DNA from: a virus | Lineage: Duplodnaviria > Heunggongvirae > Uroviricota > Caudoviricetes | IMG/VR virus record: IMGVR_UViG_2718218399_000013 | Strand: one strand, 5' to 3' | Length of the DNA stretch: 24,737 nucleotides | In this document: positions 16,820 to 18,741 of the stretch, piece after piece | Position numbering within the stretch: the first letter of the stretch is position 1 | How the letters are laid out: the number at the start of each line of letters is the position of its first letter | Notes under the pieces: generated by a model | Database searches by the model: none | Told to the model about the DNA's origin: nothing | Seen by the model: the letters and a program-made list of their open reading frames with translations, nothing else | Translations under genes and position numbers: made by a program

Positions 16820-16845
16820 TTTTCATAAACGTTGGTTTGGGAGAA
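16820..16845. repeat. pix/gix-type recombination site (proximal) of the invertible segment
   Basis: ttttcataaacgttggtttgggagaa; its reverse complement shares the half-site ttctcccaaaccaa with the site at 18373-18398 and fits the Hin/Gin crossover-site pattern. Confidence 0.6.
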
Positions 16846-17254
16846 GCGGCAAAACGGGATGTGGGGACAGGGGAAAATCAGATACCGGACATGGCTCTTT
16901 GCCATGTATGGATGGATGAAATTACCCAACGGGAAAATCCTGCAATATGTCTGGTGCGGTTTCCCGCATTATCGACGCCGTGAATTCATTCGATCTATCC
17001 CAGGCGACTGCGCGAATTATTCTGGAGGCAGTACCTTTAGGCCGGGTAGGCGAGGTGCGGGACACGCAATTAACTTTCATGATGCATCGCGAATCACCAG
17101 GACACGATTAATTACAGTTGTGGGTGTGGTGGAATTTTTTCAGTCAGGGAATATGCATTATTTTGTAGGCAAATAATGACCTGTTTTTGATGAAAATGGG
17201 CTGGCTACAGGCGCATATGGTGTTTATATATGCTAATCTGAGTATAGGCTGTCG

Positions 17255-17708
17255 ATGAAAATTATATGCGTAGTATGCCGCCTGCATGGTATTGACCCTG
17301 GCGAAAACATTCCGGGAAGAGTTGCAGTATTTACAGGTAAGGGATGGAGCCATGAAGAAGACCATCGCAATGAGACTGTTTACTCAATCGAAAATGGCGC
17401 AGCTGTTACAGTGGATTATATCGGTGCCATCAAAGACGGTTATGTCACGATTTCACCGTTAACGCCATACGATAAATGGGATGGTGAGAAATGGGTGACA
17501 GACACTGAGGCACAACACAGTGCCGCAGTAGACGCGGCAGAAGCACAGCGCCAATCACTGATTGATGCAGCAATGGCTTCCATTAGTCTGATTCAGCTGA
17601 GTTACAGGCCGGACGGAAACTGACTCAGGCAGAAACAACCCGACTTAACGCCGTGCTGGATTACATTGACGCGGTGACGCAACATACCACCGCGCCGATT
17701 CATCTGGC
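17255..17708 (+). pseudogene. tail fibre assembly protein (Tfa-family), frameshifted twice near the 3' end
   Basis: GYVTISPLTPYDKWDGEKWVTDTEAQHSAAVDAAEAQRQSLIDAAMASISLIQL, then LTQAETTRLNAVLDYIDAVT and IWPELPEA-stop in two other frames (about 17600-17708). Confidence 0.65.
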
Positions 17709-18237
17709 CTGAACTGCCGGAGGCGTAGGCCATTCAATATCTGGCGCACCGGAAGTATCGACCAGCTCCAGTGCGTCCATTTCCGATTATATCGTCATTC
17801 GTCACCTTCAGGACCATCCCTTACCGCATTGCTACTGTTCATGTATTCGTTGGCCTGGTTAATTAGTAGCTGTCTTTCTGATTCAGTAATTTCAATAAGC
17901 TCTTCATGCGTGGTAGATATCTGCCACGCAGCAGCCATCATTCGCAATACGGATTTCCGCGGCACTGTAGCCAGCCATTTTCATCAAAACAGTTTCATTA
18001 TTTAGCCCTCACCAGAAAGTTAAATGCAATATTTCGCGGTCTGACTGCAACAAAATTCACACCATCACCCACAGACTGTGAATTAATCGTGAATCCTGGC
18101 TGATTTCCGGCGATGCCATCATGAAAGTTAATTGCGTGTCCCGCACCTTCGCCTATATCCGCAACTGAGAAAGTTGTAGCGCCTGCCAGCTAATAATGCG
18201 ACACGTCTGCACTCGCCGTCATCCAGATACGAATGAA

Positions 18238-18741
18238 TCACCGGGCTTCGGTATAAGCGGGAAACCGCCAGCACGATAATATGCAGGAATTTCGCCGTTG
18301 AACTTCAACCATACAGACCACTGCGATAAGAGGCATTGCACGGACGCCAGAACGAACCCAATAGCTGGGCCCTTCTCCCAAACCAAGGTTTTGAAGAGCC
18401 GTTTTCACCGTGCCGTCCGATTTGATATCGCCAAACGGATTCTTGCGGCTCAGGTATTCAACAGCAAACCCCGATCCCAGCAATTCAACAAAACCGGGCA
18501 GATCACCATTATCAAGCACATCCCGTTGCGTTTTATCACTTACAAACTGGGCCAGAGCTGCAGCAATAAAGCTGGCCTGCCGAATAACCTTATTGACTTG
18601 CGCACTGGATGCTTTCCCTGCTGTAAATCCGGATATAAGCGCAGGCAACGCTTCCCATTCCTCCTGCGACATAACATTGGCATTTCGATCAGTTGCAAAC
18701 GCTTTAAAGTCATTTTTCGCCATCAGAGTAATACTCCCCAT
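18238..18741 (-). pseudogene. tail-fibre-like gene fragment whose 3' end crosses the distal pix site into the invertible segment
   Basis: [22 protein letters not shown] ... NLGLGEG, where GLGE is encoded by the pix site; only about 45 codons continue inside the segment; the 5' region overlaps the P-fusion ORF out of frame. Confidence 0.45.
18373..18398. repeat. pix/gix-type recombination site (distal), inverted relative to 16820-16845
   Basis: ttctcccaaaccaaggttttgaagag; 14-nt identity with the reverse complement of the proximal site. Confidence 0.6.

Follow-up and report, generated by a model that had tools for sequence, protein, structure and literature searches.

The question raised by this locus was whether a Pin-type invertible tail-fibre segment has decayed into a relic, or whether its broken appearance belongs to the letters of the record. 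The window (the whole stretch of DNA analysed, 24,737 nucleotides of IMG/VR record IMGVR_UViG_2718218399_000013) was identified as the proA-thrW region of the E. coli O157:H7 chromosome, with more than 200 complete genomes matching the 24.7 kb at ~99.5% identity. Its left half is a P4-like element. Its right half is a lambdoid remnant, labelled prophage Sp1 in the Sakai record, containing a CI repressor gene, cro, cII, a frameshifted O gene, a small fusion ORF, the tail-fibre module and pinE, with a GIY-YIG gene and an AraC-type regulator past pinE. An earlier note, made from the letters of the window, had described an intact invertase and intact crossover sites around a decayed tail-fibre cargo, and had held that the switch may still flip while no longer controlling a usable fibre. 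As set out below, the locus is very probably an active invertible tail-fibre module of the Pin/e14 family within an O157:H7 prophage remnant, its apparent decay being an artefact of a consensus drawn from mixed orientations. Feature coordinates are given in Table 1.

Table 1. Features of the invertible segment and its surroundings, numbered along the window; A denotes the Sakai orientation of the segment and B the flipped one.
Feature	Position	Strand	Basis or remark
pin (pinE-type serine DNA invertase, 184 aa), intact, outside segment	16211..16765	-	domains, PinE identity
Start codon outside segment (MMPFARYF...) and 5' part of unfused tip exon, Gp53-like_C type	16792..16985	+	A orientation
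Pin-proximal 26-bp crossover site	16820..16845	-	minus-strand reading TTCTCCCAAACC-AA-CGTTTATGAAAA; K-12 e14 comparison
Segment middle, flipped (B) orientation, ~168 dropped bases	16986..17959	+	alignment, reference proteins, Caudo_TAP
3' end of other tip exon	~16986-17175		within flipped middle
tfaA, 197-aa chaperone gene, garbled	17176-17728	+	reference proteins, Caudo_TAP
tfaB, 147-aa chaperone gene, 3' part	~17700-17959	-	reference proteins, Caudo_TAP
Tip exon SvA fused to constant exon, and first ~40 nt of tfaA	17960..18372	-	A orientation, ~73 dropped bases
Constant-exon-proximal 26-bp crossover site	18373..18398	+	TTCTCCCAAACC-AA-GGTTTTGAAGAG
Constant N-terminal exon of tail-fibre gene (MAKNDF...LGLGE, ~117 aa)	18387..18723	-	identical to Sakai ECs_0280
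103-aa fusion ORF	18723..19034	-	marks prophage deletion joint
Promoter-like site TTGACT-17-GATAAT	20623..20651	-	consensus scan, 10/12 matches
CI repressor gene, intact	20699-21412	+	gene order

The two crossover sites, TTTTCATAAACGTTGGTTTGGGAGAA on the left and TTCTCCCAAACCAAGGTTTTGAAGAG on the right, are inverted relative to each other and stand 1527 nt apart in the window. The window was searched with the 19-nt pattern TTCTCCCAAACCAASGTTT, allowing up to 3 mismatches, which gave exactly 2 occurrences in 24.7 kb; shuffled windows gave a mean of 0.03 matches, and none of 100 shuffles contained two or more. Neither the window nor the Sakai locus has a third crossover site within 3 mismatches of this pattern. 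Both sites have the form of a Din-family site, an imperfect dyad of 12-bp half-sites around a common 2-bp AA core, arranged as an inverted pair. Compared with the e14 prophage of K-12, the pin-proximal site was identical over all 26 bp and the constant-exon-side site differed from its counterpart at 2 nt, both in the outer half-site; the published e14 inverted repeat has the same core as the O157:H7 sites (Kirigo et al., PMC12529663). GLGE is encoded at both exon junctions, within '...INVGLGEAAKRD' on the plus strand from 16792 and at the second junction on the minus strand.

The pin gene adjoining the segment encodes a Din-family invertase, with matches to the Resolvase (E = 8e-52) and HTH_7 (E = 1e-15) domains, the N-terminal motif YVRVST and identity to K-12 PinE at 179 of 184 residues (97%). 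Exactly this protein is listed in 8071 blocks of the assembly collection, and it is named pinE by RefSeq. Besides the invertase itself, inversion in the Din family needs Fis and supercoiling; the invertase gene carries the recombinational enhancer, with its two Fis sites, in its 5' part. A crude motif scan of the 5' part of pin returned candidate 15-mers, with no pair 46-50 bp apart. Since the first 200 nt of pin are identical to K-12 pinE at 196 positions (515 of 555 over the whole gene), whatever enhancer pinE has was probably retained in the O157:H7 gene. The earlier note was thus borne out as to the two inverted sites flanking ~1.5 kb, the intact invertase beside them and the GLGE junctions, and its proposed alignment of the sites to known crossover sites succeeded.

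The interior between the sites (16846-18372) carries letters that are not faithful to the DNA. As written, it holds a broken tfa on the plus strand (17255-17623, with a partial Caudo_TAP match) and short fibre-tip fragments. The reference for comparison was re-sequenced EDL933, in which this locus has the Sakai sequence. The 23.2 kb lying outside the segment differed from this reference by 1 substitution (22033) and 0 indels. Inside the segment, the blocks aligned by BLAST lacked 195 bases and contained 3 substitutions and 0 extra bases, and piecewise global alignment, which included the stretch unaligned by BLAST, gave 15, 168 and 73 absent bases. The total interior loss is ~200-250 bases, in gaps of 1-6 nt that recur every few bases in patches, with perfect stretches between the patches. 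Errors limited to deletions could also result from nothing more than poor base-calling.

The orientation of the interior was found to change twice along its length, reading A from 16846 to ~16985, B from ~16986 to 17959, and A again from 17960 to 18372. The first part, taken from the start codon outside the segment, corresponds to the 136-aa ORF yfdL/ECs_0283 of Sakai, with 15 bases dropped, and the last part repeats, inverted, sequence already present at 17047-17210. Both changeovers keep the same physical offset from the site (A155 to B145, and B1322 to A1334), so that ~350 nt of the true segment is lost from the window and ~350 nt is present twice in opposite orientations; the three internal inverted repeats of the window, including a perfect 32-nt pair, are this artefactual duplication. 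An A-B-A arrangement is impossible in either true state of the switch.

In a consensus built from overlaid reads of both orientations, the surviving bases should be those at which A and B agree. For the patchy zones of the B-like middle, the retained bases were compared with the bases common to A and B at the same offset and were found to be enriched for them (odds ratio 3.2, p = 8e-11), with controls in which A was rotated by at least 150 nt or shuffled giving odds ratios of 0.8-1.5. Rotating A by as little as 37 or 75 nt left the odds ratio at 2.2-2.5, as the global alignment then falls back into register; only the rotations of at least 150 nt and the shuffles are valid nulls.

Patchy errors consisting of deletions only are typical of weak reads and would be expected from an ordinary low-quality stretch, unrelated to inversion, over DNA held in one fixed orientation. 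This explanation is nevertheless very unlikely for the present record: the damage begins and ends at the crossover sites, the bases retained are those common to the other orientation, and the middle lies opposite in orientation to the ends, so that reads of flipped molecules must have contributed. A mosaic of this type, with A ends, a B middle and differences that are almost all gaps, was moreover present in the independent assembly AR-0427.

In clean assemblies the segment measures exactly 1832 nt between the inner half-sites. Five independent assemblies were identical to A and three to B, which is its exact reverse complement, and a ninth was A with 4 substitutions; JEONG-1266 carries the Sakai sequence exactly inverted between the sites. 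Four intact ORFs are carried by the clean segment, namely two alternative fibre tips and two chaperones. In state A, the constant exon is continued by a 147-residue tip to give a 264-aa fibre, followed by a 197-aa Tfa; in state B, a 236-aa fibre with a Gp53-like_C tip is followed by a 147-aa Tfa. The parked tip exon also forms an ORF of its own, with its start (MPFARYF...) between pin and the site. Opposed cassettes of tip and chaperone, fused in frame in both states, are therefore read in the clean copies, and are unreadable in the window itself.

The constant exon has its native N-terminus, with residues 1-119 being 96.6% identical to the starts of the side tail fibres of three vB_EcoM phages, and StfA and TfaA match the fibre and the chaperone of phage vB_EcoM-611R5, respectively, at 97% identity over their whole length. 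A 5'-truncated fibre gene was considered and rejected, as the phage homologues begin at the same MAKNDF and match over the full length. The fibre module is complete, and what was lost is the rest of the virion.

Genuine decay of the cargo in this strain, by many small deletions together with a rearrangement, is what the broken tfa and truncated tip exons would suggest if the window is taken as written, and some RefSeq annotations of the same locus carry 'frameshifted' pseudogene flags. It is most unlikely all the same. The losses, with ~3 substitutions and no insertions, all fall within 1.5 kb between flanks that are practically unchanged, a pattern that no mutational process gives; decay would also have to account for a position-preserving mosaic with loss and inverted duplication, and for retained bases that track the other orientation. 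Natural decay would be expected to show mixed types of mutation, to run past the sites and to be common to related strains, and none of this was found. The interior of the window was covered to 80% by 0 of 5,426 complete genomes, and six window-specific ORF products, including the Sakai-type start of the fibre gene, were absent by exact sequence from very large protein and gene collections. The RefSeq copies flagged as 'frameshifted' differ from the clean sequence by missing bases alone (in L001, 19 absent and 0 mismatches). Apart from this record, the frameshifts and 'short remnants' are confined to a few other messy assemblies. The frameshifted tfa and short tip remnants of the earlier note accordingly stand as a description of the letters and fall as evidence of decay, being dropped bases in an impossible mosaic, and its decayed cargo is contradicted by the clean copies.

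The two orientations were counted using the Sakai segment with 300-nt flanks (A) and its in-silico flipped version (B) as queries, with a threshold of at least 80% query coverage. Approximately 125 complete genomes passed for A and ~91 for B, in a census that counts assemblies, some of which may be partly mosaic. The best matches were at 100% identity, and the next class of match was the opposite orientation at 77% coverage. As both orientations occur at 100% identity among complete genomes, the switch flips and its cargo is intact; the suggestion that it may flip was correct, with otherwise identical O157:H7 genomes found in both orientations. In a lineage as highly clonal as O157:H7, with eight of the nine assemblies examined carrying an identical segment, the 58:42 split between A and B points to frequent flipping.

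A real third arrangement, produced through extra internal sites (as in Min of p15B or the shufflons) or by recombination between internal inverted repeats, is extremely improbable: the window and AR-0427 do both combine A-type ends with a B-type middle, and the window does contain internal inverted repeats, including the perfect 32-nt pair, but a sub-inversion conserves content, whereas here ~350 nt is lost and ~350 nt duplicated, the repeats are that duplication and no pre-existing substrate, and a multi-site system of the Min or shufflon kind was rejected because there is no third site within 3 mismatches of the pattern and the clean assemblies examined are A or B only.

The preferred explanation remains an active module whose record mixes its two states. 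Pin, encoded just outside the segment, would recombine the two inverted 26-bp sites at the central AA dinucleotide, as is known for the family, and recombination would flip ~1.85 kb. By this step the constant 5' exon of a short tail-fibre gene is joined in frame, via the site-encoded LGLGE, to one of the two alternative tip exons, and as each tip exon brings its own Tfa chaperone gene, a flip exchanges a whole cassette of tip plus chaperone, as the clean genomes show. We infer that a mixed culture lies behind this record: overlaid reads of both orientations would have yielded the A-B-A consensus, and the overlay would have dropped most bases at positions where the two orientations disagree. 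The mosaics point to mixtures of orientation within single cultures, and both orientations of the e14 segment coexist within K-12 cultures (PMC4272514; PMC12529663). A search of the literature on inversion in CP-933H or O157 returned nothing specific to this locus.

The thrW-linked prophage around the switch is a relic, without baseplate, tail or head genes. In that sense only does the claim of a fibre that is no longer usable stand; as a statement about the cargo, which is intact, it fails. Lysis genes are also absent from the surviving O157:H7 remnant. The joint left by the deletion is visible in the 103-aa ORF, in which ~17 aa from the replication region run into 86 aa from the C-terminal end of a baseplate-adjacent gene, one that lies ahead of stf in intact phages. 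In phage vB_EcoM-611R5, residues 141-226 of that gene are 95% identical to residues 18-103 of the ORF. A domain search gave a weak DUF2612 match for this ORF. Its annotation as a pure remnant of replication protein P was rejected, as the last 86 residues derive from the baseplate-adjacent gene.

On the minus strand, the promoter-like site precedes cro-cII-O-(fusion ORF)-stf; it faces the CI gene and, as a strong pR-like promoter, is a candidate driver of the constant exon and stf. Since cro-cII-O is followed on that strand by the constant exon and the pR-like promoter faces CI, expression of the fibre module may follow derepression of the prophage.

The O157:H7 switch belongs with systems already known: it is closely related to the e14 P segment, RefSeq already names the gene pinE, and as a textbook case it offers little that is new. 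Its broader use lies in the error pattern: frameshifts made of missing bases only, bounded by crossover sites and accompanied by an orientation mosaic, are the signature of a segment flipping in the sequenced culture and not of pseudogenisation. Such flipping accounts for the 'frameshifted' pseudogene calls made here in several public O157:H7 assemblies.

An intact and often flipping module in a gutted prophage is also a reasonable candidate for an e14-like, Pin-dependent anti-phage role. In K-12, a Pin-dependent anti-phage effect of StfE2 upon inversion of the e14 P segment was shown recently (PMC12529663). By analogy it is conceivable, if unlikely, that the O157:H7 lineage has kept the fibre gene, two tips, two chaperones and pin as a host-serving phage-resistance switch. 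Flipping by Pin would then switch which short fibre-tip protein is made, the candidates being the pin-side MPFARYF... ORF or, if it is transcribed from the CI-controlled pR-like promoter, the fibre itself, and the tip protein could mask an outer-membrane receptor. If true, this would give a major pathogen phase-variable resistance to particular phages, as a form of bet-hedging.

Among known systems, the Din family includes the G segment with Gin of Mu, the C segment with Cin of P1 and the H segment with Hin of Salmonella. Gin, Cin and Hin are, like Pin, serine invertases of ~185-190 aa acting on 26-bp sites with two 12-bp half-sites and a 2-bp core. In Mu and P1, as in the O157:H7 module, alternative C-termini of a tail fibre are switched together with their chaperones, although the Mu and P1 fibres are much longer; Hin, in contrast, switches a promoter and not exons. 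Phage vB_EcoM-611R5 (ON470588.1), with its relatives 683R1 and 606R2, has a matching tail-fibre module, in which a baseplate_J gene and a 226-aa gene are followed by the gene for a 264-aa side tail fibre, by tfa, by an inverted tfa and tip, and by a DNA invertase. However, vB_EcoM-611R5 is a complete phage with baseplate and tail genes, whereas O157:H7 retains only the last 86 codons of the 226-aa gene and has lost all that lies upstream of them.

The closest system is the P segment with PinE of K-12 e14, reportedly described by Plasterk and van de Putte in 1985 (cited in PMC4272514) and treated by Kirigo et al. in 2025 (PMC12529663). It has the same 14-nt inner half-site (TTCTCCCAAACCAA), in addition to the identical pin-proximal site and the 97% identical Pin, and the same layout of constant exon, site, tip-tfa opposed to tfa'-tip', site and divergent pin. 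An ORF with the same start, MPFA.YF.IFINVGLGE, lies between pin and the site, matching the stfE arrangement. The C-terminal half of O157:H7 TfaA is common to K-12 TfaE, and that of TfaB is common to TfaP. The constant exon differs (MAKNDF... in O157:H7 vs MHRIDTK... in StfP), the tip exons are partly different, and the segment is reported as 1797 bp in e14 vs 1832 nt between the inner half-sites in O157:H7. The host element in O157:H7 is a lambdoid remnant at thrW that was fused by deletion to the replication region, and e14 carries mcrA where O157:H7 has the GIY-YIG gene. With respect to StfE2, the K-12 tip sequences differ from the O157:H7 tips; e14 is nevertheless likewise a cryptic prophage in which, on flipping by Pin, the start of the pin-side ORF is fused by inversion to an alternative tip (PMC12529663).

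Damage like that in the window was found at the switch locus of further public O157 assemblies, namely JEONG-1266, AR-0427, QSMX02000006.1, CDC#03-98, 472 and AUSMDU00002545, and the first three were compared in detail with the clean 1832-nt segment. JEONG-1266 and QSMX02000006.1 differed from it solely by absent bases (19 and 6, respectively). AR-0427 was an A/B/A mosaic of the two orientations, with gaps making up most of its differences. For this reason, RefSeq lists the fibre gene and tfa in both JEONG-1266 and AR-0427 as 'frameshifted' pseudogenes.

Beyond the invertible segment, the remaining 23.2 kb of the window carried a single substitution relative to re-sequenced EDL933, at position 22033 (C in the window, T in EDL933). 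An additional 23-bp iteron-like unit, TTTGAGGGATAGCAATCCCCCAA, was observed inside the replication gene O at 19506–19528 (within 19480–19600). O is broken into two ORFs because the window carries this one unit more than JEONG-1266, in which the additional copy is absent and the 'replication protein' is intact; the frameshifted form is common to Sakai and EDL933.

The neighbouring ORF, which public records list as what is left of replication protein P, is in fact a deletion-joint fusion. It has 103 residues, and the last 86 match, at 95% identity, the C-terminal end of a 226-aa baseplate-adjacent gene product of phage vB_EcoM-611R5, encoded before the fibre gene in that phage.

Features of the window outside the invertible segment
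Feature	Position	Strand	Remark
P4-like element	about 1765–12901		adjoins lambdoid remnant
Primase-helicase (P4-like element)	1765–4155	minus	
AAA ATPase (P4-like element)	9576–10235		
'ABC-three component system' genes (P4-like element)	10201–10674 and 10659–11276		RefSeq name
Integrase (P4-like element)	11669–12901	minus	
LEM-3-like GIY-YIG nuclease-domain gene	15329–16153	plus	immediately past pin
Deletion-joint fusion ORF	18723–19034	minus	103 residues; C-terminal match to vB_EcoM-611R5 gene
O ORF fragments	19031–19543 and 19345–19953	minus	split by extra iteron-like unit

The P4-like element also contains psu-, ogr/delta- and Icd-like genes, and its ABC-three component genes and AAA ATPase look like defence cargo. 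Within pin, the first 200 nt (16566–16765) were 98% identical to K-12 pinE, compared with 92.8% for the whole gene; this higher 5′ identity would fit either an embedded enhancer under added constraint or a recombination boundary. The GIY-YIG gene may be exchanged nuclease or defence cargo at the module end: in the cryptic K-12 prophage e14, its place is occupied by the restriction gene mcrA.
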